Positions 2,744 to 51,354 of a DNA stretch of 51,354 bases are shown here, one piece after another (position 1 is the stretch's first letter; each line of letters opens with the position of its first letter). Source of the stretch: a virus; the IMG/VR virus record IMGVR_UViG_3300048114_000266, positions 1 through 51,354 of that record; one strand, 5' to 3'. Made by a program: the position numbers and the translations under genes. The notes beneath the pieces were generated by a model. It was not told the origin of the DNA, searched no databases, and saw only the letters and a program-made list of their open reading frames with translations.

Positions 2744-3310
2744 ATGACCGAAACCCAATTCGACGACACGACCCGAACCGACCTTACGAACGCCGACGTC
2801 GCGACCGACGACACGGTGCGCGTCGTTTGCATGAACCCGGAAACCGGCGAAGAATTCGACGTCACGGGCGACGTCGCCACGACCTACGCCGACCACAAGT
2901 TCGCCGTCGAAGGCGACGACGGCGTCGTCGTTATCCTGAACGACGACACGAAGGAGGTTCGCGAAGGGTCGTTCGCTGACGGCTTCGACACCGTCGAAGG
3001 CTTCCGCCCGGTCTTCGTGGAATTCGCGACCGAAGGCGACCGCGAAAACGTCGACGCTGACGCCGACGACACGCTTGTCTACGATAACGTAGTTCACGGC
3101 GCGAACGAATCCACGGGCAAGGAATTCACGAAGACGAAGACGGTCGAACACACGGGCGAAGTCTACGCCGAAGACGGCGGCGTGACGGCGTTCCGCTCCC
3201 CGGACTTCGACGGCGTCTTCTTCGTCGACGACGGCGGTACGGTCGAATACGACCCCGCTGACGAAGCGCGCGACCGCTACGAAGTCGGGACGTCCGGCCG
3301 AATCGAATAG
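2744..3310 (+). CDS. Hypothetical acidic protein on the opposite strand, embedded in the structural operon
   Basis: ATG at 2744 (ORF track alternative start 2732) preceded by the conserved promoter-leader cassette in plus orientation; begins MTETQFDD. Confidence 0.55.
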   Translation: MTETQFDDTTRTDLTNADVATDDTVRVVCMNPETGEEFDVTGDVATTYADHKFAVEGDDGVVVILNDDTKEVREGSFADGFDTVEGFRPVFVEFATEGDRENVDADADDTLVYDNVVHGANESTGKEFTKTKTVEHTGEVYAEDGGVTAFRSPDFDGVFFVDDGGTVEYDPADEARDRYEVGTSGRIE

Positions 3311-6744: not shown

Positions 6745-8505
6745 TTAGTTGTCACCGCCGACCATGCGGGTGTTTGCGGACGCCGAATGTGCCGCTCCCG
6801 ACGCTTCGCTGTCGGCATTTTCGTCGTCGGTGACGCCGTCGTAGTCGACGCTAATGTCGTCGCCGTCACCGGACTTTTCGACTTGTTCGCGAAGGGCCTT
6901 TCGCGCGACTTCGGCGTCGTCGTGGCCCGTAATGTCCTTGACGATACGGTCGCCAAGTTGGTCCGGTTCCATCTTGTCCGCGTCGGGGTGTTCTTCGACG
7001 TCCGACCGAAGGTCGTCGACGTCGGACTTTAGGGCGCGCGCCCAATCCGGGGCGGCGTCCCAATCGACGCTGTCGGTGTCCGTCGACTTCGACACGTCGT
7101 CGCCGTCGCCACCGTCGGCGTCAGCGTCGGACTTGTCGACGTCGTCGGCGTCGCTGTCAGTATCGTCGTCGGACATGCTAATCCCGCCGTCGTCGCTACC
7201 GTCTTCGTCGTCTTCGCCCGACCCGTCTTCTTGGGTTTCGTCGCCGGTCCCTTCGCCCCCAGCGTCGCCGCCAAGGAATACGGAAAGGCCGGTGACTTGG
7301 CCTTCTTCGATACCTCCCGATTCGATAAGGGAGCGCACGAAGTCTTCGACAGTAGCGTCGCGCGACACCGACCCGTCGTCGACCATGCTACTGAATTCGG
7401 TAAGCATGGCCGACGCGGTGTCGGCGTTCATTTCCTGTTTGGTAGTCGTTTCCGTTCCGTCAGTCCCCGAATCACCGGGGTCGTCTTCGTCACTCATGCT
7501 AATGGTGTCGTAGTCGCACGAATCGGGTGTTTGGGCGGCAAGGTCGGCGACGTCGACGTCGACGACTTGCGCGGTCGCTTCTAACACTTCGACGTCGGGG
7601 CATTCGACCGAATCAGCGACGAAGTCGCGAATGTCTGATTCGTCGCGACCCGCTACTTCGGCAATTTCCCCGACCATGTCGGCGGCTTCGTCTTCCGATT
7701 CGGCAAGTTCCCGAATCTTGTCTTCGACGAATTCGCCGACGCCCTTCGACACCGATTCGTCCGCGTCGTCGGTTTCGCTCTTACTCATTTGCCCGTGCGA
7801 TTTGCCAAGAAGACTATCGACGTCGACGGGCTTCGCCCCGCCGTAAATCGACAGTCCGTTTAGGTCGCCCGACACGACGCGGTCCCACGTTTCGTCGTTA
7901 AACCGAATGCCCAAGACCCACGTACCTTCGGGGTATTCGCGGCTTTCCGTGCCGTCGGGCATTTCGAACGTCGTGTCTTGTTTTAGCGTCCAAGATTCGA
8001 CCGGCGTCCCCTTGCCGTCACGAAGGTCGTGGTCGCTGTCGACCTTGCGGTATTCGGAAAGGTATCGGTGGGCCGCGTCTTCGATAGCGGGCTTCGGAAT
8101 GACGTCGCCCTGTTTGTCGGCTTCTTTCGGGATTAGCACCGGGGCAAAGGCGATTTGCTTGACGTCGTCACCGCTGTCGTCGCGGTCTTTCTGAACGTAA
8201 AGCGTTGCCTCCGATTGCCAACGGTGCGACGACCCCGAAGGGTCGTCGGCGTCTTTCGCGATTACCCATTCGCTATCTTGTGCGGGCGTGTCTACCGGCG
8301 ACACGAATTCGACTTCTAAGCCGGTAAGGACTTCTTGGGCTTGCGGGTCGCTAAGGGCTTCTTTGCCTTCTTCTTCTAACCAGTTACAGAATTCTTCCGG
8401 GTCGTCTATGCCGGGTTCGTCCGACATAGCGGCTACGCACCCGTCAAAGGTGTCGAAGTCGTAGCCGGGGAAGGGTTTTCCGACTGGTTTTTGATTGTCG
8501 CCCAT
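6745..8505 (-). CDS. Scaffold or prohead-protease-like acidic protein
   Basis: ORF track, 586 aa, ATG at 8505; long low-complexity Asp/Ser/Gly tracts; lies between portal and capsid genes. Confidence 0.5.
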   Translation of the reverse strand: MGDNQKPVGKPFPGYDFDTFDGCVAAMSDEPGIDDPEEFCNWLEEEGKEALSDPQAQEVLTGLEVEFVSPVDTPAQDSEWVIAKDADDPSGSSHRWQSEATLYVQKDRDDSGDDVKQIAFAPVLIPKEADKQGDVIPKPAIEDAAHRYLSEYRKVDSDHDLRDGKGTPVESWTLKQDTTFEMPDGTESREYPEGTWVLGIRFNDETWDRVVSGDLNGLSIYGGAKPVDVDSLLGKSHGQMSKSETDDADESVSKGVGEFVEDKIRELAESEDEAADMVGEIAEVAGRDESDIRDFVADSVECPDVEVLEATAQVVDVDVADLAAQTPDSCDYDTISMSDEDDPGDSGTDGTETTTKQEMNADTASAMLTEFSSMVDDGSVSRDATVEDFVRSLIESGGIEEGQVTGLSVFLGGDAGGEGTGDETQEDGSGEDDEDGSDDGGISMSDDDTDSDADDVDKSDADADGGDGDDVSKSTDTDSVDWDAAPDWARALKSDVDDLRSDVEEHPDADKMEPDQLGDRIVKDITGHDDAEVARKALREQVEKSGDGDDISVDYDGVTDDENADSEASGAAHSASANTRMVGGDN

Positions 8506-8558: not shown

Positions 8559-8780
8559 CGTCAAATCGGCGGCGTCGTGACTATACAGCGTTACTATACA
8601 GACGTCGAAAAGCCGCCGCGCCCCGTGACGAACGCGGCGGACACGACGACGACGCGGTGTCGGGCGTGAAAGGTTTGGTGCGAACCCTATGACTTGCCCG
8701 CGACCGACCGGACGGGTCGCCCCGTCACTTCGACGTAGCGTCGGCCCCATTAAAAGCATGTCGGGCGGAACGTCGACGCC

Positions 8781-11528
8781 TTACGTCAAGTGATTAACGT
8801 GGGTGTCGTAGCGGTCTATCCAATCGTATAGCGTGTTTGGCGACACCTTGCCCCGTTCTTCGACGTCGTATTCGTCGGCTTCGACTAACCGCCGATTGAA
8901 TTCCCGAAGCGCGCCCCGCTTCGAACCCGATTCTTCTAAGCATTCACGTAGGAGGTTCGGAACGTGATTGCCCAAGACGTCTTCTAATTCCTGCATACGC
9001 CGCGTGGGGTTCGTCGCCTTCGCGACGCGCTTGACGACGTCCGCATACGTTTCGTCGTGGGCCTTCGACGCTTCGACGGGTTCGACGTTCGCGTCGCCGG
9101 CTTCGAATTGGTCCGCGAAGTCGTCGGCCGACGGCACGTCGACGTCCGGCGCGTCGTCGCCGGTCCCCGGAACCCGCACGAACGTATGCCGTTCGTTCGG
9201 GTGAATCGTATGCTTGCGGAACGATAGGTTATCGAAGTATTCGTCGTGAACGTTCCGTTCAGCGTCGATTAGTTCGGGGAGCGTGACCGGCGTCCCGCCG
9301 TGGTCCGGGTTCGTCATGTCTTTCAGGTCTTCGCACGCGTCGGTCGTGCGACTGTCGTCGGGACCGACCCATTTGAACTTCGCGTCGTCAAGCCCACGGT
9401 CGCGATAGCCTTCTTCGCGCGCTTCGTTCAGTACCTTAGCCGATTCGGTGCGCGCTATCGTTTCCAAGTCGTCGGGGTCCGCACGGGGGAGCGCGTCGCT
9501 AAGATTGTCGACGATTGAATCTAACGACCACCCTTGCGGGTTCGTCAGCGCGTCGCTAAGCGTGTCTTGAATCGTAGTAGCCACACGTCCCGGCACCGAC
9601 GCGAAGTCGCTGAACACGGCCCCACGGTCGACGACGTCTTCTAACGCGGACATGACGAAGTCGGGGACGTCTTCGTCTTCGGCCCACGCCCGCTTTTCTA
9701 TGTCGTCAAGCGACTTCGGGGCTATCTGTCGGTCGAACGCCCGCAACAGCGTCGTGTCTAACTTCGCGACTTCGTCTTTCGTCAGTCGGTCGCGGTCGCC
9801 GTCCCCGTCACTCCCGTTTCCCGAATCACCCTTCGTCGTGGGGCCTTGTTCGACGGCGTCGAAGTCTATGTCGTCGAAGTTAACGCCGTCGTATTTGTCG
9901 ATAAGGTCTTGCACCGTTCCGGGGCCGACGCCGAAGACTTCCGCATGTGGGTCGTGGGTTTCCGGCGGGTTCGGCGGGTAAACGACGTCGCCGCCGTCAG
10001 TATTCCGCGCCCGTTTCACGTCGAAGACGACGCCGCCTTCGTCGGCAAGGTCGTCTAAGAAGCGTTCGAAGTCGCCCGATTCGTGGTCTACCGCTTCCCC
10101 GCCGACGTGATAGGTAAGCGGGACGCCACCCTTCGAACGGTCGACGCGAATGTCGGCTTCGTCGGGGTCGTCGACCGACCCGAATAGGCCACCGCCGCCA
10201 CCGCCACCGCCGACGTCGCCTTCTTCGATTGGTCCGTCTTCGACCACTAACTTGCCGTCGCGGAAGGTGACGTCGCGGCCGGCGTTGGCCATTTCCTTCC
10301 CGGCGGTCGCTTGCGCTTCGATAACGTCGGCGCGCGTCTGACGTTCGTCGGCGGTTTGCTCCCGTTCGAATTCGAAGGCAAGGTCGTCGCTAATTTCGGG
10401 CCACACGTATGCCCGGTTAAGGGCTTCTTCTAATTGGCGAAGGGTGACGCGGAAACCGCGCTGTTTGTATGCTCCTTGCTGGGATTCGTCGGTGGCGCGA
10501 TTGACGTTTTCGAAGTCGAAACCCGCATACGACGGGTTAACCTTGAAGACCGACCCCAAGACCGTGACCCAATACTTCGAACGGTCAAGAATTTGTAGTT
10601 CCTGATAATTGTGATTTATCGCTTCGAAGTTTACGGGCGTCTTCGAATAGCCGACGCGGTGGCGTTCCCCTTCGTCCAAGCGCATGGATTCGACGAAGGT
10701 TTCCCAATCTTCGTCGTTCGGTAGTCCGCCGTAATCGTCTAAGGCTTCCGGGGAAAGGACACCGGGCGGGCCGCCTTGCATTAGGTCTAACCGCTCCTTT
10801 TCTGCAAGTTCTTCTAACAATTCGACTTCGTTTTGGGCCTTTTCTAAGGGGCCTTGCCCATAAAATCGGTCGGGGCGCGACGACCATTCGACCCACACAA
10901 TATCGTTAACGTCGAATTCGTCGGTCTTCTTCCCCTTGCTTTGCGACACTTGCACGAAGCCTTCGGTAATCCCGTGCCGGTCGACTTGCTTGAATAGCGA
11001 CGCGCTGTCGACCGGGACAAGTTCGGCGACTTCGTCACTATCTTCGTAGTAGTGCTTGACAAGCGTCGCGTCGCCCAATTCCAACAGTACCCGCGTCGTC
11101 GCTTCAAGCATGTCGCGGAACGACGCTTGCGCGGGCGGCAATTGCCGCATGTGCCTTTCGACCTTCGCTAAGGCTTCGTCGGAAATGTCGGCGTCTTCGT
11201 CGCGGGGTTTAATCGACCAATTCGCGGCGGCGACGTCTTGCGATAGCGTGTCGATATAGGCTTGCACGACGGCGTTCGCGGATATGTCGCGCAAGAAGAC
11301 GGGGTCGTAGGGCTTCGTCTTGGCGTTACCCTGAACGGCGTCGCGAACGTCGTCGTTTACGTTCACGCGCCGGTTAATATCACCTCCCTTTTCCGCTGTT
11401 TCCGGGGAATTGTACCGCTTGCGGCGTCGTGACCGGACCCGCTGACGGCGTTCGCGACCGCTACGGGCGTCGCCGCCGTCCGCGAAGGGTGACGTAATCC
11501 CCTTGACAAATTTACTAAGGCGCGACAT
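8781..11528 (-). CDS. Portal protein fused to a MuF/SPP1-gp7-like head morphogenesis domain
   Basis: ORF track, 915 aa, ATG at 11528. C-terminal half carries IARTESAKV, WVGPDDSRTTDACEDL and HPNERHTF; a Gly8 tract (around 10186-10215) separates the halves. Confidence 0.6.
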   Translation of the reverse strand: MSRLSKFVKGITSPFADGGDARSGRERRQRVRSRRRKRYNSPETAEKGGDINRRVNVNDDVRDAVQGNAKTKPYDPVFLRDISANAVVQAYIDTLSQDVAAANWSIKPRDEDADISDEALAKVERHMRQLPPAQASFRDMLEATTRVLLELGDATLVKHYYEDSDEVAELVPVDSASLFKQVDRHGITEGFVQVSQSKGKKTDEFDVNDIVWVEWSSRPDRFYGQGPLEKAQNEVELLEELAEKERLDLMQGGPPGVLSPEALDDYGGLPNDEDWETFVESMRLDEGERHRVGYSKTPVNFEAINHNYQELQILDRSKYWVTVLGSVFKVNPSYAGFDFENVNRATDESQQGAYKQRGFRVTLRQLEEALNRAYVWPEISDDLAFEFEREQTADERQTRADVIEAQATAGKEMANAGRDVTFRDGKLVVEDGPIEEGDVGGGGGGGGLFGSVDDPDEADIRVDRSKGGVPLTYHVGGEAVDHESGDFERFLDDLADEGGVVFDVKRARNTDGGDVVYPPNPPETHDPHAEVFGVGPGTVQDLIDKYDGVNFDDIDFDAVEQGPTTKGDSGNGSDGDGDRDRLTKDEVAKLDTTLLRAFDRQIAPKSLDDIEKRAWAEDEDVPDFVMSALEDVVDRGAVFSDFASVPGRVATTIQDTLSDALTNPQGWSLDSIVDNLSDALPRADPDDLETIARTESAKVLNEAREEGYRDRGLDDAKFKWVGPDDSRTTDACEDLKDMTNPDHGGTPVTLPELIDAERNVHDEYFDNLSFRKHTIHPNERHTFVRVPGTGDDAPDVDVPSADDFADQFEAGDANVEPVEASKAHDETYADVVKRVAKATNPTRRMQELEDVLGNHVPNLLRECLEESGSKRGALREFNRRLVEADEYDVEERGKVSPNTLYDWIDRYDTHVNHLT

Positions 11529-15356: not shown

Positions 15357-15443
15357 GGTTCGGTCGGTCGCGTCGGTCGCGACGCTGTCGACTTCGCCGG
15401 GTGGGTTTGAAAGCGTGTCGGTAGTAAACCGATTGGTGGAGGG

Positions 15444-30398: not shown

Positions 30399-30733
30399 GT
30401 GTCTTCAGTAGCGTCGAATTCGTTCGTTTCGTCACGGGTGACGTCCAAGTCGCTGACGTCGCCGAACCGTTCGACCATGACCACGGCGGATTTGCGGACG
30501 TGCCGAACTTCGTCGTAGATTCGAATGGCTTCGGCGTCGCCCGCGTCTTGGTCGCCCAAGCCGTGCCGTGGCGGGGACACCGACGCGCGGTAGCCCGCAA
30601 GGTCGTCTTTGTCGTCAGTCGTCACGACGACGTCGACATGGGCGAATGCGCGCCCTTCGTCAGTAACGTCGGGGTGGTCGAAGAATAGCCGGAACGCCCG
30701 GCCCGTATCGAAGATTTGGTCGAACGTGTTCAT
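30395..30733 (-). CDS. Hypothetical protein
   Basis: ORF track, 112 aa; ATGA overlap with the upstream gene. Confidence 0.5.
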   Translation of the reverse strand: MNTFDQIFDTGRAFRLFFDHPDVTDEGRAFAHVDVVVTTDDKDDLAGYRASVSPPRHGLGDQDAGDAEAIRIYDEVRHVRKSAVVMVERFGDVSDLDVTRDETNEFDATEDT

Positions 30734-31101
30734 GGGTGGGGGTCGTAGGCGTCTTGTGCGAATTCAGTCACGTCGTCGGGGTGAACGTCGATACCGACGA
30801 ACGTCGTCAGATACGACGCAAGGGCTTCGGTCGCCTTGTCGGTCGCGACGTAGGTATTCGTCCGCTTGTCGCGTTCGCCCTTGTAGATAAATCCATTCCG
30901 AACCAAGTCGTCAAGGTTCGGGTAAAGGCGGCCGTGATTGACTTCTTCGCCACGGATTACCTCTAAGTCGCGCTTAATCGCTAAGCCGTGCGGTCGGTCG
31001 TCGGGGGACGCACCGGGAGAGCCACCAAGCCGCATGATTGCGATAGCGGCCTGTTGTTGAAAGGCGGTAAGGTGCGCCCAATCGCTCACTTTCGGGTTCA
31101 T
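30730..31101 (-). CDS. Winged-helix transcription regulator (PadR/MarR-like)
   Basis: ORF track, 123 aa; GRLYPNLDDLVRNGFIYKGERDKRTNTYVATDKATEAL reads as recognition helix plus wing; a palindromic site lies just upstream. Confidence 0.55.
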   Translation of the reverse strand: MNPKVSDWAHLTAFQQQAAIAIMRLGGSPGASPDDRPHGLAIKRDLEVIRGEEVNHGRLYPNLDDLVRNGFIYKGERDKRTNTYVATDKATEALASYLTTFVGIDVHPDDVTEFAQDAYDPHP

Positions 31102-31124: not shown

Positions 31125-31148
31125 ACACCGACAAAAGCGTGTCGGTGT
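31125..31148. promoter_or_regulatory. Perfect 9-bp inverted repeat with 6-bp spacer (candidate operator)
   Basis: ACACCGACA-aaagcg-TGTCGGTGT, 24-47 nt upstream of the winged-helix gene start (31101). Confidence 0.55.
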
Positions 31149-34574: not shown

Positions 34575-35377
34575 GTGTTCGTGTCTAACAAGGGCGCTTG
34601 CATGAATTTAGTGTTCACCCGGCCGTCGTCGCGTTCGGTAAAGACGTGGTACGGGTTCCCGTGGCCGGTGACGAACCGCACGTAGTCTTCGCTGATTGCG
34701 TCGACAATATTCGGCATGTATTTGTTCGACATGCGGGCTTCGGTGAACGATTCGGGCGGGTCTTGAAGCCATTCGAAGCCGTCGTCGTCGTGTAGTTTCA
34801 CGCGGGCGCTGTCGTTATCGCCCTTGCCTTCAAGGACGAACGTACCGACGTCGTCGTCAGACGCGACGAAGTTCCCTTGCCCGCTCCCCGCGCCGGATAG
34901 TTCCGCGACGTCGGTCCCACGGTCCCACCGTTCGACGGGAATGGTCACGAAGACGTTATACCCGTGTTCGTCTTTGACCGGCGGGACGTCGACCGGCGAC
35001 CCCTTGACGCTGTCGGGGTCGACACCCGACATTTCGTATTCGACGCCGTCGGCCTTGAAGTCTAAACTGTAATTATCCCAATTGTAATCTAACTGAACGA
35101 CGTCGGCGTTTTTCGCGATACCAAGCAATTCGTCTAACTTGCCGGTGTCGACGCCAATCGCGAAGGTGTCTTCGACTTCGTAGTGTTCGAAGTCGGTCGC
35201 GTCGACGGCTTGCCGCGACAGCGCCACGTTCGCCGCGTCTTTCTTGCGAACGCGAAGGCGGTCGGGTTCGAATTCGAACACGGCTTCTAAGTCGGGCGAC
35301 ACGGCGTCGACGCCTTCGGTAATCGTTTCCCAAATGCTTGCGTCGGCAATCGTTTCGACAGTAGGTTCGTTTGTCAT
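34571..35377 (-). CDS. pcna: PCNA-like sliding clamp
   Basis: ORF track, 268 aa. The segment RLRVRKKDAANVALSRQAVDATDFEHYEVE...FAIGVDTGKLDELLGIAKNADVVQL follows the pattern I recall for haloarchaeal PCNA N-terminal domains; alignment done by eye only. Confidence 0.55.
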   Translation of the reverse strand: MTNEPTVETIADASIWETITEGVDAVSPDLEAVFEFEPDRLRVRKKDAANVALSRQAVDATDFEHYEVEDTFAIGVDTGKLDELLGIAKNADVVQLDYNWDNYSLDFKADGVEYEMSGVDPDSVKGSPVDVPPVKDEHGYNVFVTIPVERWDRGTDVAELSGAGSGQGNFVASDDDVGTFVLEGKGDNDSARVKLHDDDGFEWLQDPPESFTEARMSNKYMPNIVDAISEDYVRFVTGHGNPYHVFTERDDGRVNTKFMQAPLLDTNT

Positions 35378-35438
35378 AGGTTTTCGGTCGGTCGTCGGGT
35401 ACGGGGGACGAAGCCCCGCCGACCGCGTCGGTCGGATA

Positions 35439-35521
35439 TGCGACGGGCCGGATTCGAACCGGCGAACCCCTACGGGACACGGTCTTAAGCCGTGCGCGTT
35501 TGGCCACTTTGCTACCGTCGC
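35439..35521 (-). tRNA. tRNA-Leu, anticodon UAA
   Basis: Hand fold of GCGACGGTAGCAAAGTGGCCAAACGCGCACGGCTTAAGACCGTGTCCCGTAGGGGTTCGCCGGTTCGAATCCGGCCCGTCGCA: 7-bp acceptor stem, anticodon stem CACGG/CCGTG with loop CTTAAGA, long variable arm, T-arm GCCGG-TTCGAAT-CCGGC. The D-stem is weak. Confidence 0.7.
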
Positions 35522-35599
35522 GCGGGCCGGGTATTAGTTCGTCAGCGCCCCCGGCTTCTTGCCGACGGTTCACGGCTTTTCGGTGCCGTCGACGGCGCA

Positions 35600-35716
35600 T
35601 AGTCGCGGGTGGATTCGAACCACCGTCGTAGGCTTACTTTCGGGCACGCCCCCTTCGACCTTCGTTCAGCGTGCCCGTCCAAAGGCCCACATGATTGGCC
35701 ACTACACCACGCGACT
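35600..35716 (-). tRNA. tRNA-Gln, anticodon UUG, with a 44-nt intron
   Basis: Exon 1 AGTCGCGTGGTGTAGTGGCCAATCATGTGGGCCTTTGG and exon 2 AGCCTACGACGGTGGTTCGAATCCACCCGCGACTA give a perfect acceptor stem, anticodon stem TGGGC/GCCTA and T-arm GGTGG-TTCGAAT-CCACC. The insert sits at the canonical 37/38 position. Confidence 0.7.
35635..35678 (-). other. tRNA intron
   Basis: Contains a 9-bp inverted repeat CGGGCACGC ... GCGTGCCCG, compatible with a splicing helix. Confidence 0.6.
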
Positions 35717-35765
35717 GCAAGCGTTGGTTTCGAATCTATCCGGTTAAGGCATGTCGGTCGCCGGC

Positions 35766-36224
35766 CTACCCACTATCAGACACGGGGGCGACCCCGTCGT
35801 CGTCTAAGTCCGTGGCCGTGCGTCTGACGAATTCCCGAACCGCTTCGACGTCCGGGCGGCCCGGCGTGTCTTGTAACGTCGCGACCGTCGCTTGGTCGAC
35901 CGCCGCGTCGAATTCGGGAGCGTTCGCCGCTTCTTCGAAGGCGACACGGTGGTCGTCGACCTTTTCGATAGCGACGTCGGCCCATTCGGGTAGGTCTTCG
36001 TCGTCGATTGCGTCAAGCGTGGCCGCGTAGACGCGGGGTTCGGGCACGTTCACTTCGGCCGCAAGCGTCGGCACGTCGACTTCGGGGACGCTGACGTCGA
36101 ATTTTACCTTCGTCCGAAGTTCGTTCGTCCCCAATTCGGACGCCTTTGGCTTCGTCTTGCGGATTTTCAGGTCGCCCGTTTTCCAATCGACGACTACCCA
36201 CCCGGTAATCTCCTTGTCAGTCAT
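35766..36224 (-). CDS. Hypothetical protein
   Basis: ORF track, 152 aa; ATGA overlap with the upstream gene. Confidence 0.5.
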   Translation of the reverse strand: MTDKEITGWVVVDWKTGDLKIRKTKPKASELGTNELRTKVKFDVSVPEVDVPTLAAEVNVPEPRVYAATLDAIDDEDLPEWADVAIEKVDDHRVAFEEAANAPEFDAAVDQATVATLQDTPGRPDVEAVREFVRRTATDLDDDGVAPVSDSG

Positions 36225-37642
36225 TCGTACCGACCCCGAAGTTCAAGGCCGCCGGTATAGTCGGGAATGTGGGCATACGCGTCGTCGACTAACGCCGTAA
36301 TCAGGTCGTCTTTGTCGGGCTGTTGGCCGACGTCGACCTTCGGGCGTTCGGCCGCTATGACTTTCAGCGCGTTATACGGCAAGAAGCCGTCGTCGTCGGC
36401 CGCGTCGAAGGCTTCGCGACGGTCTTGCACGGGAATGTCTCCGCGCCCGAATTCGATTCGAAGGTCGGGACCGTCGTCGTTCAGTACGTCAGCGTGGTGG
36501 GGGCCGTCGTCTTCGTCGTCGGCGTATTCGTGGTTTGCGTCGGGGCCGACACGCGGGTCGTGTTCTTCCCAATTGTCGACGCCAATCCACATGTCGCACG
36601 GCTTGCAGTAGCGTTGCGCCCCAGCGTCAGATAGTTGGCCGTGGTTAACGCGGGCACCATTCGAAGTTTCGCCGGGTGGCCCGCCGCTATCCGTGTCGGT
36701 ATCCGCTCCCCGTTCGGCCAAGTCGTCGGCGACGTCGGCGTCGGTCGCGTCTTCTTCTTGCATGTCGATTTGTTCGGCCGCGCTTTCCGATTCGGGGTCG
36801 GGTTCGTCGTCGGGAAGCGCGTCGTCGACGTCACCGCCGTCGATATAGTCGACGCCGTCGTCGGGTTCGTGGTCGGCTAAGGCCGTCTGATTCGGGTCGT
36901 GACGTGGGTCGTCTTCGCTGATTGGGTCGCCGGGTTCGACTATGTCGACGTCGTCGCGAACGGTGTCGTAGTCTTCGGCCCACCCCGGCACGTCCGGGTC
37001 TTCTTCGGTCGCTTCGGTGCCCGTCGTGAACACGTTCCGCGTCACGTAGGCGTAGCCGATAATCGCGGGGCGACTGTCGCCCGCGCCGTTCGGGTGAATG
37101 ACCCACACGCGGGTACGAAGCGGTTCGATAACGGGCGGCGGATTGCTGTCGGAAACGGGGATTTTGAGGTTCAGCCCACGGTCCCGACATTCTTCGATAT
37201 AGTCTTCGGGCGTTTCCCAATTGGTCGCGCCGACCGACATTAGGACGTCGTGGGACCGGGCCGACGTTATGTCGGCGTAGTGGTCGCCGTCGAAGCCGTA
37301 CCGCGACAGACGGTCGAAGTGGTCGGGAATGTCTTCGCCGGGCGTGGTCGTGTTCCCGTCGGCGTGATAGTGGGCCGCGAACGAATTGCCGGGGAATGCT
37401 TTCCACCCCGGAATAATCGCCCCGCGCCCCGTGTGTTCGCGGTATTCGACGGGTTCGTCTAATTCCACGAAGCGCGGTATCTCCCCACCTTCGGCCGACA
37501 GCGCGGCGACGTCGCTACGAATGTAGCATGATTGTGGCTTTAGGTGGCCGCAACCACGTTCCCGGTTATCTATGCTTTCGCGTTCGTCGCCGTCGGTCGC
37601 CTTGCCTAAGACTTCGTCGACGGCGTCGGTTAGTGTCGTCAT
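36221..37642 (-). CDS. Large acidic protein with a C-terminal motif shared with the TFB-like protein
   Basis: ATG at 37642 within ORF track 36221..37651; C-terminus PYNALKVIAAERPKVDVGQQPDKDDLITALVDDAY. Confidence 0.55.
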   Translation of the reverse strand: MTTLTDAVDEVLGKATDGDERESIDNRERGCGHLKPQSCYIRSDVAALSAEGGEIPRFVELDEPVEYREHTGRGAIIPGWKAFPGNSFAAHYHADGNTTTPGEDIPDHFDRLSRYGFDGDHYADITSARSHDVLMSVGATNWETPEDYIEECRDRGLNLKIPVSDSNPPPVIEPLRTRVWVIHPNGAGDSRPAIIGYAYVTRNVFTTGTEATEEDPDVPGWAEDYDTVRDDVDIVEPGDPISEDDPRHDPNQTALADHEPDDGVDYIDGGDVDDALPDDEPDPESESAAEQIDMQEEDATDADVADDLAERGADTDTDSGGPPGETSNGARVNHGQLSDAGAQRYCKPCDMWIGVDNWEEHDPRVGPDANHEYADDEDDGPHHADVLNDDGPDLRIEFGRGDIPVQDRREAFDAADDDGFLPYNALKVIAAERPKVDVGQQPDKDDLITALVDDAYAHIPDYTGGLELRGRYE

Positions 37643-37700
37643 GGTTCGCACCTTGCGACCTATCGTTTCGTCGTAGGGGGTAAAAGCGTGTCGGTAATAT
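37643..37700 (-). promoter_or_regulatory. Promoter-leader cassette (variant)
   Basis: ggtgcgaacc box directly abuts ATG 37642; accgacacgc-TTTTAcc and TATATTA lie further upstream. Confidence 0.45.
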
Positions 37701-39420: not shown

Positions 39421-39441
39421 CGGGTTAGGTATTGCCTGATT

Positions 39442-39458
39442 GGTATATTAGCGACATA
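39442..39458 (+). promoter_or_regulatory. BRE/TATA-like promoter of the TFB-like gene
   Basis: cgacatac-TTTTATG about 35 nt upstream of ATG 39489. Confidence 0.45.
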
Positions 39459-39488
39459 CTTTTATGCCGGTCGGCGGTACGTGTCGGT

Positions 39489-40538
39489 ATGGAAACGGAA
39501 CCAGATACCGACGCGACCGACCGGATTCGTTCGATTGCCGAACGGGTCGGGTTCGACGACAGTATCGGCGACTTGGCTACCCAAGTGTTCACGAACGCCG
39601 TCGAAGAAGGCGTCGTCACCGCCGTCGTCGACCGCGACGAAAGCGGTCGCTTCGAAGGTGAAACGCGGAACTACCCGGCGGCCGCATACCCGGCGGCCGT
39701 GTATGCCGCCGCGCGGATTCGTGACATTCCGACCAAGCCGTCCGAAGTCGCTGACGCGGCCGACGTCGACGCTGACGTCGACGCTGTCGGTGACTATTAC
39801 AAGGACATGCTTGGGGCGCTACCCTACACCGTCGAACCGGAAGACCCGGTCGATTGGGTGCGCCGGCTTTGCGACGACTTGGACGTGTCCCCCGGCTTCG
39901 AAACCGACGCCGTCGACTTGTGCGGCGACGCTGTCGGTGCGAACCTGCATAACGGCAAGGCCGTGTCCGGGTTCGCCGCCGCCGTCGTCTACGCGACGTC
40001 GGAATATCGCGACGCTGACGTCGGGCAAGACCGTATCGCCGAAGTCGCCGACGTGTCGCCCGTGACGATTCGGAACCAGTACCGCGACGTCTTGGAATTG
40101 TGGGAACGGGCGGCCGAACCGGGCGACCCCGACGTGATTCGGGCCGCCGTTAACGACGTGTGTGACCGTATCGACGGGCTTCCCTCCCGCGTGCGGGCCG
40201 ACGTCGCCGACCTTGCCGCCGACGCTATCGACGCCGACGCCGACTTCGTCAGTAACACCGACCCCGACGGCGTGGCGGCCGGTATCGTCTACGTGGCGGC
40301 GAAAGACGCCCGCGTCGACGTCAGTCAAACCGAAGTCGCTGACGTCGCGGGCGTGTCGAAGTCGACCGTCGTGAACCGGGTAAACGACGTCCGCGATTGG
40401 CGGCGTCGGAAGGACTTCGAAGCGAAGGAATACAATACGCTAAAGCAAATCGCGGCCGACCACGGCGTCGACGTCGGGCAACAGCCCGAACGCCCCTATC
40501 TTATCGACCGCTTAGTCGAAGCGGGTGTCGACGCATGA
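39489..40538 (+). CDS. TFB/TFIIB-core-like transcription factor with no N-terminal zinc ribbon
   Basis: First ATG of ORF track 39432..40538. SGFAAAVVYATSEYRDADVGQDRIAEVADVSPVTIRNQYRDVLEL closely follows the pattern I recall for the second cyclin repeat and HTH of archaeal TFB; two further similar modules are present. The N-terminus has no Cys pairs. Confidence 0.6.
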   Translation: METEPDTDATDRIRSIAERVGFDDSIGDLATQVFTNAVEEGVVTAVVDRDESGRFEGETRNYPAAAYPAAVYAAARIRDIPTKPSEVADAADVDADVDAVGDYYKDMLGALPYTVEPEDPVDWVRRLCDDLDVSPGFETDAVDLCGDAVGANLHNGKAVSGFAAAVVYATSEYRDADVGQDRIAEVADVSPVTIRNQYRDVLELWERAAEPGDPDVIRAAVNDVCDRIDGLPSRVRADVADLAADAIDADADFVSNTDPDGVAAGIVYVAAKDARVDVSQTEVADVAGVSKSTVVNRVNDVRDWRRRKDFEAKEYNTLKQIAADHGVDVGQQPERPYLIDRLVEAGVDA

Positions 40539-43228: not shown

Positions 43229-43729
43229 ATGTCTTCCGCGAAGGGCGATAGGTGGGAACGGCATTACGTGAACGCGCTTAGTGCCGACGACCCCGACGAC
43301 GATAGCGACGACGTCGAACGGGTCGGTATCGACGACTTCGCGTTAGTCGAACCGTTCACGGCGTTACGCCTTCCCGCTTCCGGCGCGGGGCGTTCCGCCG
43401 ACCTTCCCGACATTCATGCGTGGCTTTGCCCCGACGCCCATACAGTCCGACAGTACGCCGCCGAATCGAAGGCGGGGGCCGACCGGGTGTATTTGGATAA
43501 CGACGAAGTAGACGCGCTTGTGCGCTACGCTGACGACACGGGGGCGACGCCGGTCGTGTTCGTTCATATCGACCACGAACACGCACATGACGACTTAGGC
43601 GGCGATTACGTCGTCGCTATTGACGAACTACATTCGACAGCGTCGGGCTACACGTTCACGAAGACCCGCGACGCCCCGACAGCCCGGACGTTCGCCGAAT
43701 GGGTCGACGACCCCCAATCGGTCGCTTAG
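43229..43729 (+). CDS. hjc: Holliday junction resolvase (Hjc-like)
   Basis: ORF track, 166 aa. GDRWERHYVNAL ... LRLPASGAGRS ... PDIHAW ... AAESKAG ... VYLDNDEVDALVRYADDTGATPVVFVHI follows the pattern I recall for archaeal Hjc (G.xFER ... SGS ... PD ... E.K ... Y ... P..AV). Confidence 0.55.
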   Translation: MSSAKGDRWERHYVNALSADDPDDDSDDVERVGIDDFALVEPFTALRLPASGAGRSADLPDIHAWLCPDAHTVRQYAAESKAGADRVYLDNDEVDALVRYADDTGATPVVFVHIDHEHAHDDLGGDYVVAIDELHSTASGYTFTKTRDAPTARTFAEWVDDPQSVA

Positions 43730-44164: not shown

Positions 44165-46261
44165 TCACCTCCCCGTCCGGCCTTCGACAGTAGTTTCGAC
44201 CATATGCCCCGACGAATCCGTATTGTCGACGATTACGCCGACCGATTGTTCGCCACCCGTCGAATTCGTGTAGGAGGCAAGCGGCGACCCGGTTTCGTCG
44301 TCGAAGACGGTAGACCCGTCGCCCGACAGTATCGTCGATTGGGTCGTGTAGCCGCCCGAATTGTCGAACGTGACAAGTTCGACGTTCACGCCCGTCGGCA
44401 TGGCTTGGGCTAACCCGGTCGTCAGCGTCGCTTTGTCTATTTCCATAGTTTCGCCGTCGGCTAAACTATCGACCACGACGACGGCTTGCGTCGTGTTCCC
44501 GACGTTCCGCGACAGCGACCCCGACACGCGGTCGTGTGGTCGGCTAAGTTCCGGTCTTTGAATGGTTCCCGCCGCGTCGACTAAGGTAGACCCCGTGATA
44601 GTATCTAACCGTTCGTGCAAGACGGCACGCCGGTAGTTTACGCCACCCGACCCGTCGGCTTCCCCACGAAGGCTTAGGATAGTGCCGCCGCCGACTGAAT
44701 ACGATTGGCCATATTCCCGCCCGGCGTCCGCACTTCCGTCGACCGGGGCCGAAATGGTCGTGTTCCCCCACGAACGATTTGCCGGGAATGCGACCGCCGC
44801 GCCCCCTTTTGGAATGAACGACCCGAACGTTTCGAAGTCGGAAGTAGAATCTATATTTCCGTATAGTGTAAGCAGTCCGTCGACCCGAAAGTCGGTAGTG
44901 ACGCGACTGCCGCCACCCGTGTTCGGGTGGTCGCCCGTTACGTAAATCCCCGACTGTGGCGAAAATCCGACCGGAACCGCGACGTCTTTCGAAGACAGTC
45001 CACCCGACCCGTCAGCGTACCCCAAAATCGAAAGGAATGGTTGGCCGGCCACGCCGAACGAATACGACACTTCGTCGCCCGAATTTTCGATTCCTGAAAG
45101 GGGGTGGTCGAACGAACTTCCCCGGAAGGATACGTCACCGCCGACGATAAGTTCGCTGAACACGCGGACGTATTCGCGTTGCACGCCGCCCGAACCGTCG
45201 GCGTCGACGGCGGCCCACAATTGCGAAGACCCACCCGCCGAAAGGCCCACGCCGACGGCGGAACCCGCCGACGCATTCGAATCGACCGGGGCTTCGGCAA
45301 GGGAATTTCCGGGCGTTCTGTTTGCGGGGAACGATATGGCCGCCCCACCCTTCGGGATAAATGCCCCGAACGTTTTGAAATCCCCATTAATATCTATATT
45401 ATCGTAAGATGATATTGCCCCATTTACTTGAAGCGACCCCGTGAATTGGTTATCGGCGGAGGCTTCGCTATTTGACCCGGTGACATACATCCCTCCGCCC
45501 CCGTGTATTTGGCCGTATATGTCGACGCTACCAGATATTTGGTTATCCGCTTGTGCGTCGGGGTGCGACCCGGTTACAAGAAGCCCGCTGTCGTATGTCG
45601 TCGGCTTAGCGAATTGCACTTCGCCGTTTTGGATACCTCCCGACCCGTCCGATTCGGTGTAGATTTTCGCGAATTCTTCGCCGTCGACCGCGAACGTGTA
45701 TGATACTTCCGTCCCGGCGGACGTGTTCGATTCGACTTGAATGTCGAATAACGGGCCGAATTGCGTCGTTCCCGGCGTCGCTTCGAACCCCGACGACAGT
45801 AGTGCCGAAGCCGCCGGGTGCGCCCGCCAATTGTGAATATCGCCTTCGGTGACGTCGCCGGCCGCGTGGGGGACCGCTACAAGAGCCAACAGTAGCCCGT
45901 CCGACGGCGTTTCGGGAGGTTCGGGGTTCGGGGCCGGCGTACCTTCCGCGACGGCGTAGGTGCCCGCACTACTGTCGAAATACACCAAGTCGACGCGACG
46001 GTCGTCTTGGCCCGACGTCGTCGTTTGCGGCCCGGTCGACAGCGTGAACGACGTCGACGACGGGGAGTAGGTAGCACTATCATACGACAAGTTCGTCGCG
46101 GCGGCTACCTGAATCCCCATAGCGGTATTGGGGTCGGGCGTCACTTGCGCGTCGCCGTTGTTTTGGATACCATTACCGACGAACGCTTCGGTAATCGCTT
46201 CTAAATATCGGCCGAAGAAGGTTCCCCCTTGTGGGGCTTCGAACGGTTCGGCTTCGGGCAT
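44165..46261 (-). CDS. Tail fibre or receptor-binding-like protein with internal repeats
   Basis: ORF track, 698 aa; duplicated block DFKTFGAFIPKGGAAISFPANR / DFETFGSFIPKGGAAVAFPANR; Gly/Ser/Thr-rich. Confidence 0.6.
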   Translation of the reverse strand: MPEAEPFEAPQGGTFFGRYLEAITEAFVGNGIQNNGDAQVTPDPNTAMGIQVAAATNLSYDSATYSPSSTSFTLSTGPQTTTSGQDDRRVDLVYFDSSAGTYAVAEGTPAPNPEPPETPSDGLLLALVAVPHAAGDVTEGDIHNWRAHPAASALLSSGFEATPGTTQFGPLFDIQVESNTSAGTEVSYTFAVDGEEFAKIYTESDGSGGIQNGEVQFAKPTTYDSGLLVTGSHPDAQADNQISGSVDIYGQIHGGGGMYVTGSNSEASADNQFTGSLQVNGAISSYDNIDINGDFKTFGAFIPKGGAAISFPANRTPGNSLAEAPVDSNASAGSAVGVGLSAGGSSQLWAAVDADGSGGVQREYVRVFSELIVGGDVSFRGSSFDHPLSGIENSGDEVSYSFGVAGQPFLSILGYADGSGGLSSKDVAVPVGFSPQSGIYVTGDHPNTGGGSRVTTDFRVDGLLTLYGNIDSTSDFETFGSFIPKGGAAVAFPANRSWGNTTISAPVDGSADAGREYGQSYSVGGGTILSLRGEADGSGGVNYRRAVLHERLDTITGSTLVDAAGTIQRPELSRPHDRVSGSLSRNVGNTTQAVVVVDSLADGETMEIDKATLTTGLAQAMPTGVNVELVTFDNSGGYTTQSTILSGDGSTVFDDETGSPLASYTNSTGGEQSVGVIVDNTDSSGHMVETTVEGRTGR

Positions 46262-46294: not shown

Positions 46295-47353
46295 TTAGGG
46301 CGTGTAGTAGTCGGGGAACGCGCCCGGCGACCCCGGTATTGCAGAAATATCTACTCCCCTATATGTGAATTCTCCCGTGGTGTCACCAAACACCGAAAGC
46401 GACCCGTCTTGGGGCAAATAGGCGAACCCGTATCGGTACGTATTCCCTGAAATATATTGGACGTATGCGAAGAAGGTTCTACCGTATGGTGTCGGCGTCG
46501 AAAACCCACCTATATTATTCAGGTCGACAGACGATATTAGTTCGCCGTTTGGCGAATATTTGTTCAATTCCCCGCGCCAATATGCCGTTACCACGCCACC
46601 AAACCCGACGCTGACGGTGTTTAGTGGAATGGGTGACTTTGACTTCGACCATTTGTGATTTAGGTCGGCGTCGAATGCGTGAACGTCGTCACTCCCGCCC
46701 ACAATTACATTCCCGTATGGCCCCACGTTCACACTATTTATGTGTTGGTCGGGAATTTTGTAATTCCCCAATAACGACCCACCATTCGAATCTATGTTTA
46801 CAATTTTGTCGCCGTTGCTATAATATATTGAATTGTCCGGGGTCGAATATCGAATATCACCTATACCCCTTGAACTATCATTACTATCAGATATTGACCA
46901 ATCCACGCCGCTACCGTCTTCGAAGACTCTCCCCACCCGGATGGGTGAATTTTGACCGCCCCACGCGATAAAGTAGACACCGCCCCCAATTCCGGCGGCA
47001 ATTGATTCAGCGTCAAGTACGGGACCGCTACCGAATTGCACGTCTTTCGACCAAATCACGGATAAATCTTCAGTTAATTTATATATGGTAGACGAAGACC
47101 TACCCGTGGCAAATACATGTCCTTGTGGGGTGGCGCGAATTTTATCGACCGGATTTTCTAATGTCGCTCCCGTATCTTGGACGCCGCCCGGTGAAAATTT
47201 GGCAATATTGTTCGGCGGGCTTGCGTTAATGCCGTCCCTATAAACCCCATAGACGGGCCAACTTGGTGGGTCCGGGTATCTTCGGATTGCGCCAAGATTG
47301 TAAAGCCGCTGTCGTTCCCGATAGTCACTAAGGTCGGATTGGGAAGCGGGCAT
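46295..47353 (-). CDS. Tail or baseplate-associated protein
   Basis: ORF track, 352 aa, ATG at 47353. Confidence 0.55.
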   Translation of the reverse strand: MPASQSDLSDYRERQRLYNLGAIRRYPDPPSWPVYGVYRDGINASPPNNIAKFSPGGVQDTGATLENPVDKIRATPQGHVFATGRSSSTIYKLTEDLSVIWSKDVQFGSGPVLDAESIAAGIGGGVYFIAWGGQNSPIRVGRVFEDGSGVDWSISDSNDSSRGIGDIRYSTPDNSIYYSNGDKIVNIDSNGGSLLGNYKIPDQHINSVNVGPYGNVIVGGSDDVHAFDADLNHKWSKSKSPIPLNTVSVGFGGVVTAYWRGELNKYSPNGELISSVDLNNIGGFSTPTPYGRTFFAYVQYISGNTYRYGFAYLPQDGSLSVFGDTTGEFTYRGVDISAIPGSPGAFPDYYTP

Positions 47354-50418: not shown

Positions 50419-51354
50419 CTAACGAACCCCCGCGCGGTCGTTAGTCTTGTCACCGACACGTTCCGCAATCTTGTCGGCAAGTTCTTCTAACGTCCGGCGG
50501 TCGACGTTCGTCGGGTCGAATTCGCCCGACAAGTCGATTGTAATGCCGTCGATTGCGACCGACGTCCCGCCGCCACCGCCGCCCGACGCGGCCGCACTAA
50601 CAAGCGGTTCGGGAATGACGGCTTCGCCCTTGTGAATTTGGGCGACGCCGTCGGATTCTACCATGCCGCCCGAAGCCATTCCCCGGACTTGTTCGCCCGC
50701 CCATTCACCAAGCCCGTGAATCGGGTTATTCGTCATTACGTTTTCTATCGTATTCGCCGCTCCGGGGTTATTTTCAGCGAATCGTGAACCCGCCCTTCGT
50801 GCCGGACCCCACCCGTCGCCACCGCCGGCTATTTCGGCAAGGATTTGGCCCGCCGTCAGCGTCGGCCATACGATTGCGCCGACTATCATACCGCCCGTGA
50901 TAGTCCCGAACCCGATTGCGGCGGCTATCAGCCCGCCCGTGACCGCGCCGAACGGTATCGACTTCAATAGTTGGCCGCCCGATATGACCTTGAACGACAT
51001 GGCCCCGACGACTAACGCCGCGCCGATTACGGGCCACCCCAGCGCGCCGACGATTATGCCGGCCCCAATCGTCGCCCACGACAGCGCGCCGACGACGTCG
51101 CCCGCTTTCAGTTTCCCCCATGCGATTGCACCGACGATTAGGCCGGCCCCGATTATCGGCCACCCGACGGCGGCGATTATCAGCCCGGCGGTAATCGTCC
51201 CCCATTTCAGCGCGCCCAAGACGTCGCCCGCTTTCAGTTTCCCCCATGCGATTGCACCGACGATTAGGCCGGCCCCGATTATCGGCCACCCGACGGCGGC
51301 GATTATCAGCCCGGCGGTAATCGTCCCCCATTTCAGCGCGCCCAAGACGTCGCC
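50419..51354 (-). CDS. Tape-measure-like tail protein, C-terminal segment (same gene as 1..583)
   Basis: ORF track 50419..51345; the TTG start there is an artefact of the window edge. Contains two identical 42-aa repeats plus one diverged copy, then a Gly-rich C-terminus. Confidence 0.55.
   Translation of the reverse strand, partial: GDVLGALKWGTITAGLIIAAVGWPIIGAGLIVGAIAWGKLKAGDVLGALKWGTITAGLIIAAVGWPIIGAGLIVGAIAWGKLKAGDVVGALSWATIGAGIIVGALGWPVIGAALVVGAMSFKVISGGQLLKSIPFGAVTGGLIAAAIGFGTITGGMIVGAIVWPTLTAGQILAEIAGGGDGWGPARRAGSRFAENNPGAANTIENVMTNNPIHGLGEWAGEQVRGMASGGMVESDGVAQIHKGEAVIPEPLVSAAASGGGGGGTSVAIDGITIDLSGEFDPTNVDRRTLEELADKIAERVGDKTNDRAGVR
51103..51354. repeat. Two perfect tandem copies of a 126-bp in-frame repeat inside the tape-measure-like gene; a further copy forms the window start (1-127)
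   Basis: The string gacgtcgcc-cgctttcag recurs at 51094, 51220 and 51346, giving a 126-bp period; encodes the 42-aa unit LGALKWGTITAGLIIAAVGWPIIGAGLIVGAIAWGKLKAGDV. Confidence 0.8.

Follow-up and report, generated by a model that had tools for sequence, protein, structure and literature searches.

Several described systems resemble the locus reported here. The haloarchaeal virus HGTV-1 carries 34-36 tRNAs, one of them intron-bearing, for which codon bridging was proposed in the case of Glu, Gly and Gln (PMC13532342, PMC8651126). In the cell, the tRNA-Gln(UUG) of Haloferax volcanii (HVO_0864_T) has a 31-nt intron, and knock-down of the splicing endonuclease EndA lowers the level of this tRNA; the Haloferax alpha2 endonuclease requires a motif of the bulge-helix-bulge (BHB) type in its strict hBHBh' form (PMC7714728). 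As regards DNA composition, the purging of motifs has been described in archaeal tailed viruses as an alternative to self-methylation (PMC8651126), and the virus Hardycor1 is devoid of AGCT, CTAG and TGCA and avoids CAGC, CATC and CCAG (PMC7911831). Here we analyse a viral stretch of 51,354 nt, the whole of IMG/VR record IMGVR_UViG_3300048114_000266 (positions 1 to 51,354, hereafter the window), in which a tRNA-Gln(UUG) with a 44-nt intron and a tRNA-Leu(UAA) lie side by side in a genome that has lost most copies of the words GAG and CTC.

As in HGTV-1, the viral tRNAs of the window read codons that are over-used relative to a GC-rich host, and HGTV-1 also provides a precedent for an intron in a viral tRNA; unlike in HGTV-1, the tRNAs are only two, and the codon gap comes from purged DNA words and not from a lower GC content. 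The function of viral tRNAs is debated between codon bridging, rescue from host shut-off and counter-defence. The tRNAs of the window are of a known type, common in haloarchaeal tailed viruses; what seems less ordinary is that the codon gap can be traced to a cause outside translation, the purge of short DNA words, and that the tRNA set seemingly follows it. We regard as probably the best explanation of the locus that a small viral tRNA operon compensates for a codon shift forced by this purge.

Two tRNA genes and a host-type intron

The preliminary description had placed two viral tRNAs, with the anticodons UAA and UUG, at 35439-35716 without giving a strand; both were recovered within these limits by ARAGORN and Rfam, on the minus strand, as follows.

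35521..35439, minus strand: tRNA-Leu(UAA), found by ARAGORN and by Rfam RF00005 (53.9 bits, E 6.8e-9)
35716..35600, minus strand: tRNA-Gln(UUG), intron-containing precursor of 117 nt, Rfam RF00005 (46.3 bits, E 8.6e-7)
35679..35716, minus strand: 5' exon of tRNA-Gln, ending in CUUUGG (UUG, then G37), from the sequence read and the split against host genes
35678..35635, minus strand: 44-nt intron at the canonical 37/38 site, reading A-CGGGCACGCU-[17-nt loop]-GGCGUGCCCG-AAAG-UA
35600..35634, minus strand: 3' exon of tRNA-Gln, starting at A38, from the sequence read and the split against host genes

The gathering score of RF00005 is 29 bits, and both tRNAs align to model positions 1-71. The match to tRNA-Gln spans the whole model, its anticodon loop holding 47 nt where the model has 3; because of the intron, the gene is absent from the default-mode ARAGORN calls, which comprise one tRNA. 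A permissive Rfam scan, with a limit of E <= 1, brought up no further tRNA-like RNAs in the window. In minus-strand orientation, tRNA-Gln is AGUCGCG UG GUGU AGUGGCCAA UCAU G UGGGC CUUUGG [44 nt] A GCCUA CGAC GGUGG UUCGAAU CCACC CGCGACU A, with the anticodon loop CUUUGGA (anticodon UUG) after splicing, an A1-U72 pair, the discriminator A73 and no encoded CCA. The A1-U72 pair is invariant across the five viral tRNA-Gln copies compared, and sampled host genes have matching acceptor ends (AGT...ACTA). The tRNA-Leu belongs to class II, with a 7-nt anticodon loop CUUAAGA (anticodon UAA), discriminator A73, no encoded CCA and a long variable arm, in which a 12-nt insertion, cccguagggguu, forms a stem-loop with a 3-bp stem in the consensus fold. 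Double, compensatory changes affect 16 of 23 pairs among six viral homologues of tRNA-Leu and 12 of 22 pairs among five viral copies of tRNA-Gln, which argues for selection on structure in the viral tRNA helices.

The intron is inserted after CUUUGG and before A38, as both the Rfam alignment and the sequence read indicate, in agreement with the length and the site proposed before. It fits the strict hBHBh' motif, with 3-nt bulges on opposite strands and exactly 4 bp between them: the central helix is formed by C32-U35 with the intron AAAG (CUUU/AAAG), the first bulge, GG|A, consists of G36, G37 and intron nucleotide 1, and the second, UA|A, of the last two intron nucleotides and A38. The bulges are flanked by the fully paired anticodon stem (5/5 bp) and by an inner intron helix which had been given as 9 bp; the nine Watson-Crick pairs are there, and with one additional U-G pair the helix amounts to 10 bp. 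For the isolated arm, the hBHBh' structure has an energy of -24.9 kcal/mol and the minimum free energy (MFE) structure one of -26.7 kcal/mol, a gap of 1.8, and the MFE structure keeps the register of both flanking helices. The 117-nt precursor folds better than 200 of 200 shuffled sequences (z = -4.6).

With an intron of host type, the alpha2 endonuclease of the host would cut at the two bulges and the host RNA ligase would join the exons. Cleavage of the viral precursor by EndA and ligation by RtcB are predicted from the motif and from the H. volcanii data (PMC7714728). In Pfam and PHROG scans of the approximately 50 open reading frames (ORFs) of the window neither EndA nor RtcB was detected, nor were a DNA methyltransferase or an integrase, which is consistent with the proposed reliance on host splicing. 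A box C/D guide of the type found in tRNA-Trp was looked for in the intron by reading the sequence, which has one CUGA and no UGAUGA or box C (RUGAUGA); at 44 nt the intron is also too short for this type.

We compared the viral gene with cellular tRNA-Gln(UUG) genes by scanning one genome per species, which gave at least 120 loci with an intron-bearing tRNA-Gln(UUG). Among the matches listed, about 100 are from Halobacteria of many genera, with the intron at the same site as in the window and with lengths of 22-51 nt (mode 29-31 nt); the 5' bulge GGA is present in 99 of 101 host genes and the helix plan of the window in 95 of 101. The cellular genes, such as HVO_0864_T, share with the viral one the anticodon, the 37/38 site, the GGA 5' bulge, the central helix CUUU/RRRG of 4 bp and a 3' bulge that contains A38, and their exons are 88-92% identical to it. 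The window tRNA-Gln differs from the cellular genes in being encoded by a virus, in its 44-nt intron (vs the 29-31-nt mode) and in compensatory substitutions in three stems. Its spliced sequence matches the best host gene at 92% and the median one at 88% identity, values to be read against a host-host identity with a median of 93% and a minimum of 79% in the sampled genes. Its identity to the syntenic viral copies is lower, at 70-81%, and these copies in turn reach 70-78% with the median host gene.

The intron therefore appears to be inherited, as the ancestral intron that haloarchaeal cells have in their tRNA-Gln(UUG) gene, and not a viral invention. The simplest reading of these sequences is that the window tRNA-Gln is the product of a recent capture of, or conversion by, a host gene with its intron, and that the older viral tRNA-Gln copies have lost theirs. 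In several of the intronless viral copies positions 32 and 38 have changed from C/A to U/G, a drift to be expected where the BHB constraint is gone. This would suggest that host tRNA genes are taken up with their introns and that the introns are lost later. Neither the exact 19-mer spanning the exon-intron junction nor an intron-bearing tRNA-Gln of the window's form was found in IMG/VR, the latter in 2.9 million contigs. No host tRNA-Leu(UAA) was present in the 120 genome loci fetched for tRNA-Gln(UUG).

Codon usage and depletion of short DNA words

Codon usage of the virus was computed over 45 ORFs (13,233 codons) and compared with 101 pooled haloarchaeal genome loci (154,000 codons), fetched for another purpose, as a host proxy. 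GAA makes up 97% of Glu codons in the virus vs 31% in the pooled host loci, and CAA 80% of Gln codons vs 16%, so that the codon preference opposite to that of haloarchaeal cells, noticed from a few genes in the preliminary description, extends genome-wide and the CAG/GAG preference of the host is not what the virus shows; the statement that every Gln is CAA holds as a preference and not without exception. For Leu, the virus uses CTT (36%), CTA (18%), TTG (15%), TTA (14%), CTG (14%) and CTC (3%), and the pooled host loci CTC (58%), CTG (26%), TTG (5%) and TTA (2%), i.e. TTA and TTG together account for 29% of viral and 7% of host Leu codons, and CTC and CTG for 84% of host Leu. GAG and CTC, two of the commonest host codons, are thus nearly eliminated (3% of Glu and 3% of Leu codons, respectively). 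When the 61 codons are ranked by over-use in the virus relative to the host loci, TTA comes first (4.7-fold), CTA second, CAA third (3.6-fold) and GAA seventh, so that the viral anticodons UAA and UUG match two of the three most over-used codons. The favouring of A-ending codons, as it had been described, is true of Glu, Gln and TTA and not in general: the G+C content at third codon positions (GC3) is 72%, GCA, GGA, CCA, ACA, GTA and TCA each make up 6-8% of their family, and AAA makes up 29% of Lys codons.

The origin of this pattern lies at the level of DNA words. GAG/CTC occurs 143 times in the window, vs about 1600 occurrences expected from a zero-order model or 1258 from a dinucleotide-based one (about 9% of expectation). 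CGAG/CTCG is missing altogether (0 vs 493 expected), as are AGCT, CTAG and GATC (0 each vs 179 expected each), and GATG/CATC (13 vs about 360), GCAG/CTGC (25 vs 493) and CCAG/CTGG (40 vs about 497) are reduced to 4-8%; the purge of CAG/CTG hence depends on context. In the pooled host loci CGAG is over-represented 2.4-fold. Of the residual GAG/CTC, 123 of 143 lie within GGAG/CTCC; Shine-Dalgarno-like sites were considered for these residues and rejected, as only 1 of 143 qualifies. TCGA, CGAA/TTCG and CGAC/GTCG are over-represented 4- to 6-fold in the window.

In order to separate DNA words from codons, synonymous codons were shuffled with the proteins and the codon usage held fixed, and out-of-frame words were counted. 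CTC in frame 2 was observed 17 times vs 251 +/- 9 in the shuffles, GAG in frame 1 21 times vs 82 +/- 6, CTG in frame 2 14 times vs 101, and CAG in frame 1 37 times vs 109. Out-of-frame GAG/CTC is 3- to 15-fold below the synonymous shuffles, and the depletion extends to all frames and both strands, which indicates selection on DNA words and not on translation. The loss of the words GAG, CAG, CTC and CTG removes the host-preferred Glu and Gln codons and the two main Leu codons, and the apparent A-ending pattern is its by-product.

None of the four cultured haloviruses that come closest by their terminases (Humcor1, BJ1, HSTV-1 and HRTV-28) avoids GAG, and two of them, HSTV-1 and HRTV-28, have annotated methyltransferases. 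The window has no detectable methyltransferase of its own and fits the strategy of purging instead of methylating (PMC8651126). Like Hardycor1, it lacks AGCT and CTAG and strongly avoids CATC and CCAG; unlike in avoidance of the Hardycor1 type, a whole trinucleotide pair is hit, GAG/CTC being at about 9% of expectation in the window and at 1-4% in its relatives. We found purging of an entire trinucleotide pair described nowhere in the literature searched.

Uncultured relatives and alternative explanations

With the 476-aa protein encoded next to the tRNAs as query, three IMG/VR contigs with 55-68% identity were found, and further contigs were obtained by tRNA pattern scans; contigs are named by our own labels where needed. 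A metagenome scan with the alignment of this protein gave, among the matches listed, one contig of 2.3 kb without tRNAs. At the syntenic site, L002/L007 and L003 have tRNA-Gln(UUG) and tRNA-Leu(UAA), both intronless, and L001 has tRNA-Leu only. GAG/CTC is purged in all of them (observed/expected 4/521, 8/291 and 22/496). In L001/L129, without tRNA-Gln, CAG/CTG is not purged (320/547 expected in L001) and CAA makes up 38%; in L003, L007 and L006, tRNA-Gln is present and GAG and CAG are both avoided (6/343 and 19/368 in L006). The contig IMGVR_UViG_3300007029_000002 (L128) purges both words (GAG/CTC 5/336, CAG/CTG 7/335) and carries at 2994-3240 a tight cluster tRNA-Gln(UUG)-tRNA-Leu(UAA)-tRNA-Glu(UUC), exactly the trio that compensation of a purge predicts. 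In the same contig CTAG and GATC are at expected levels. The tRNA set thus appears to follow the purged words, from L001, with neither CAG avoidance nor tRNA-Gln, to L128, with both purges and the trio.

IMGVR_UViG_3300021446_000199 and IMGVR_UViG_3300028304_000060 share with the window the Gln/Leu gene order, the neighbourhood and a similar upstream promoter-like element, and these two and the L128 contig have the GAG/CTC purge in common with it. The tRNA-Gln of these three contigs has no intron, is 70-81% identical to the window copy and is further from host sequences. Overall, intronless copies are those of L003, L007, L006, L128 and L140.

Three further IMG/VR contigs have an intronless tRNA-Gln(UUG):

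L005, 12223-12295: tRNA-Gln(UUG)
L139, 6302-6375: tRNA-Gln(UUG)
L140, 8998-9231: tRNA-Gln(UUG), two tandem diverged copies

Identity to spliced host exons is 100% for the L005 copy, the exons being those of a Halolamina gene (L025) and equally of a Halobaculum gene (L022), and 99% for the L139 copy. These contigs prompt one to ask by what route a host gene with an intron gives rise to copies that lack it.

If the tRNA operon compensates for the purge, the virus would have removed GAG/CTC, by context CAG/CTG, and also GATC, CTAG and AGCT from both strands, most likely in order to escape from sequence-specific host nucleases, the likeliest reason since the virus encodes no detectable methyltransferase. 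The purge would strip the genome of the host favourites GAG (Glu), CAG (Gln) and CTC and CTG (Leu) and force translation onto GAA, CAA, CTT, CTA, TTA and TTG, which are rare in the host. One putative promoter in the replication module would serve two genes in series, tRNA-Gln(UUG) and then tRNA-Leu(UAA); the former would derive, by capture or gene conversion, from the tRNA-Gln(UUG) gene of a haloarchaeal cell and would have brought along the canonical intron of that gene. Once expressed, spliced and charged, the tRNAs would help to decode CAA and TTA, and perhaps TTG by wobble, to the benefit of viral translation. This suggests a testable chain from defence evasion through a forced codon shift to the acquisition of tRNAs, and the near-absence of GAG/CTC points to a pressure on DNA in hypersaline communities that acts through a very short recognition word.

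A wider proposal can be put forward only tentatively, and we would stop short of calling it probable. The lineage as a whole would purge entire trinucleotide pairs from both strands and all frames and recruit from the host the tRNAs for the replacement codons (Gln-UUG, Leu-UAA and sometimes Glu-UUC); the purge would serve as escape from a nuclease or DNA sensor recognizing an unusually short word, or possibly as immunity to a nuclease of the virus itself that shreds GAG-rich host DNA; and the window tRNA-Gln would have been freshly recruited or gene-converted, and caught before the loss of its intron.

Several observations weigh against compensation of a purge by host-derived tRNAs. The shift to GAA is the most extreme (97%, +40 codons per 1000), yet the virus has no tRNA-Glu(UUC), and CTA and CTT are as over-used as TTA and have no viral tRNA; ARAGORN, Rfam and the permissive Rfam scan found none for the over-used GAA, CTA, CTT, ATT and ATA. 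L005, L139 and L140 carry tRNA-Gln(UUG) with a host-like composition and no CAG avoidance, so that the link would run from avoidance to tRNA and not the reverse. When the intron was aligned to about 100 host introns, the best score, 9.0, did not stand out significantly from the shuffled null (maximum 7.0 +/- 1.6, up to 12), and none of them could be singled out as the donor; host tRNA-Gln introns differ widely in sequence between genera. Moreover, host usage is represented by a pooled proxy of many genera in place of the actual host, and the comparative sample is small, consisting of about seven viral contigs of partly shared ancestry, compared with no phylogenetic correction.

The preliminary description implied a general preference for A-ending or AT-rich codons, by mutational bias or translational selection, with tRNAs to match. 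The dominance of GAA and CAA and the excess of A over T on the coding strand (AT skew) would follow from it, but it is already contradicted by the codon, k-mer and synonymous-shuffle results and is hardly tenable: GC3 is high, the share of other A-ending codons within their families is 6-10%, AAA accounts for less than a third of Lys codons, GAG/CTC and CAG/CTG are depleted also out of frame and on the non-coding strand, and Humcor1, BJ1, HSTV-1 and HRTV-28 show no GAG avoidance. It is also conceivable that the viral tRNAs do not serve codon demand and replace host tRNAs cleaved by anticodon nucleases or lost in shut-off, a counter-defence or supply role that has been discussed for phage tRNAs and, beyond codon bridging, for HGTV-1 (PMC13532342), and which could account for the differences from the host at loop positions 32 and 38 in the diverged copies of the relatives. 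The window tRNA-Gln, however, has the host anticodon loop CUUUGGA and 92% host identity, and a nuclease specific for the loop would cleave it as readily as its host counterpart; since such a role also leaves unpredicted both the match of the anticodons to the first- and third-ranked over-used codons and the way in which the tRNA set follows the purged motifs across relatives, we consider it unlikely.

Two other explanations concern the host-like character of tRNA-Gln and its intron. Both genes might be passenger DNA with no role in translation, i.e. recently captured host fragments or a tRNA-type attachment site (attP): haloarchaeal proviruses commonly integrate in tRNA genes (PMC8651126), the window tRNA-Gln is very host-like and retains the host intron, and L005 and L139, of host-like composition, hold copies 100% and 99% identical to host exons. 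This is very unlikely given that no integrase domain was found in the approximately 50 ORFs of what is probably the complete genome, that both tRNAs are full length and not partial 3' copies, that synteny of the pair holds in relatives in which identity of the adjoining protein is down to 55-68%, with many compensatory changes in the copies, and that a conserved viral promoter-like element precedes the operon. Alternatively, the virus might keep the intron for a use of its own, such as EndA-dependent timing, a block to recombination or integration, or a stable circular RNA. The perfect BHB, the 10-bp inner helix, longer than in most host introns, and the length of 44 nt vs the host mode of 29-31 nt would fit a useful intron, which is nevertheless a decidedly unlikely one: it is missing from all syntenic and other viral copies (L003, L007, L006, L128, L140), no intron-bearing copy of this form occurs in the 2.9 million IMG/VR contigs, no box C (RUGAUGA) is present, and the copy with the intron is at the same time the one closest to host genes, in keeping with a young capture whose intron has not yet been lost.

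Flanks of the tRNA genes and the virus genome

The following elements and genes adjoin the tRNAs, all on the minus strand.

35766..36224, minus strand: 152-aa gene upstream of the tRNAs, phrog_21750 (function unknown), E 3.4e-42
36221-37651, minus strand: 476-aa protein adjoining the tRNA operon, with no Pfam or PHROG match
35744..35755, minus strand: promoter-like element GACATGCCTTAA, whose TATA-like TTAA ends 27 nt before the mature tRNA-Gln 5' end
35522..35599, minus strand: 78-nt spacer between tRNA-Gln and tRNA-Leu, with no promoter-like element of its own
35416..35435, minus strand: hairpin CCGACCgacgcGGTCGGCGG directly 3' of tRNA-Leu, kept in L001 and L007
34571-35377, minus strand: PCNA-like sliding clamp, gene downstream of the tRNAs, Pfam PCNA_N, E 9.9e-5

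The promoter-like element, GACAYGCNTTWA, ends 26-27 nt ahead of the first tRNA in the window, L001, L003 and L007, and the motif occurs in 9 copies in the window vs 2.9 expected, including those at 1600-1611, 8751-8762, 15408-15419, 31132-31143, 35744-35755 and 37681-37692 (all minus strand) and at 39453-39464 (plus strand). For several copies, e.g. those at 1600-1611, 31132-31143 and 37681-37692, a gene start follows 25-30 nt downstream, a spacing suggestive of leaderless transcripts; others lie further upstream of genes or within ORFs. The element may thus act as a promoter, and since the spacer has none of its own, tRNA-Gln and tRNA-Leu are probably co-transcribed. The hairpin CCGACC...GGTCGGCGG follows tRNA-Leu in three viruses, the window, L001 (~7575-7593) and L007 (~2334-2355), and CCGACCgacgcGGTCGGCGG occurs exactly only once in the window; the hairpin might act in 3' processing, in termination or in protein binding. 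The PCNA gene downstream places the tRNAs in the replication module. No IMG/VR relatives were found with the PCNA protein as query. An ORF at 35073..35600 (minus strand), overlapping tRNA-Leu, was rejected as spurious, since it runs out of frame across the PCNA gene. The 476-aa protein is conserved in all relatives (55-68% identity), and many of its Cys and His residues are invariant.

The first 127 nt of the window (1-127) are identical to the last 127 nt (51228-51354), which we read as an assembly overlap of a closed contig of about 51,227 bp; the window is probably the complete genome, of about 51.2 kb, of a haloarchaeal tailed virus, apparently lytic. A provirus was considered and ruled out by the even GAG/CTC depletion in all 2-kb bins and by the self-closure of the contig. 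The terminal overlap falls in a 126-nt tandem repeat of 2.3 copies (51067-51354) inside the ORF at 50419-51345 (minus strand). Proteins identified by Pfam and PHROG scans include:

1618-2628: tail tube protein
6745-8505: prohead protease
8781-11528, minus strand: portal-MuF fusion, a single protein of 915 aa
16769-18244: terminase large subunit (TerL)
30730-31101: PadR regulator
39432-40538, plus strand: archaeal TFB/TFIIB homologue, Pfam TFIIB repeat, E 2.4e-24
43229-43729: Hjc resolvase
44165-46261: baseplate protein

TerL is only 41-44% identical to that of any cultured halovirus, the nearest being Humcor1, HSTV-1, BJ1 and HRTV-28, and no DNA-level match to cultured viruses was found when the tRNA locus and 24.5 kb of the window were compared with the INPHARED phages. 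The fusion of the portal with the MuF-like head-morphogenesis domain is also annotated in HSTV-1 and HRTV-28. The gene of the TFIIB homologue lies on the strand opposite to most genes, at a switch of gene orientation. Finally, the ORF at 46295-47353 (minus strand), in the tail-fibre region, has a GC3 of 0.51 vs about 0.72 for the genome and an overall GC content near 50%, and may be a recently exchanged host-recognition module.

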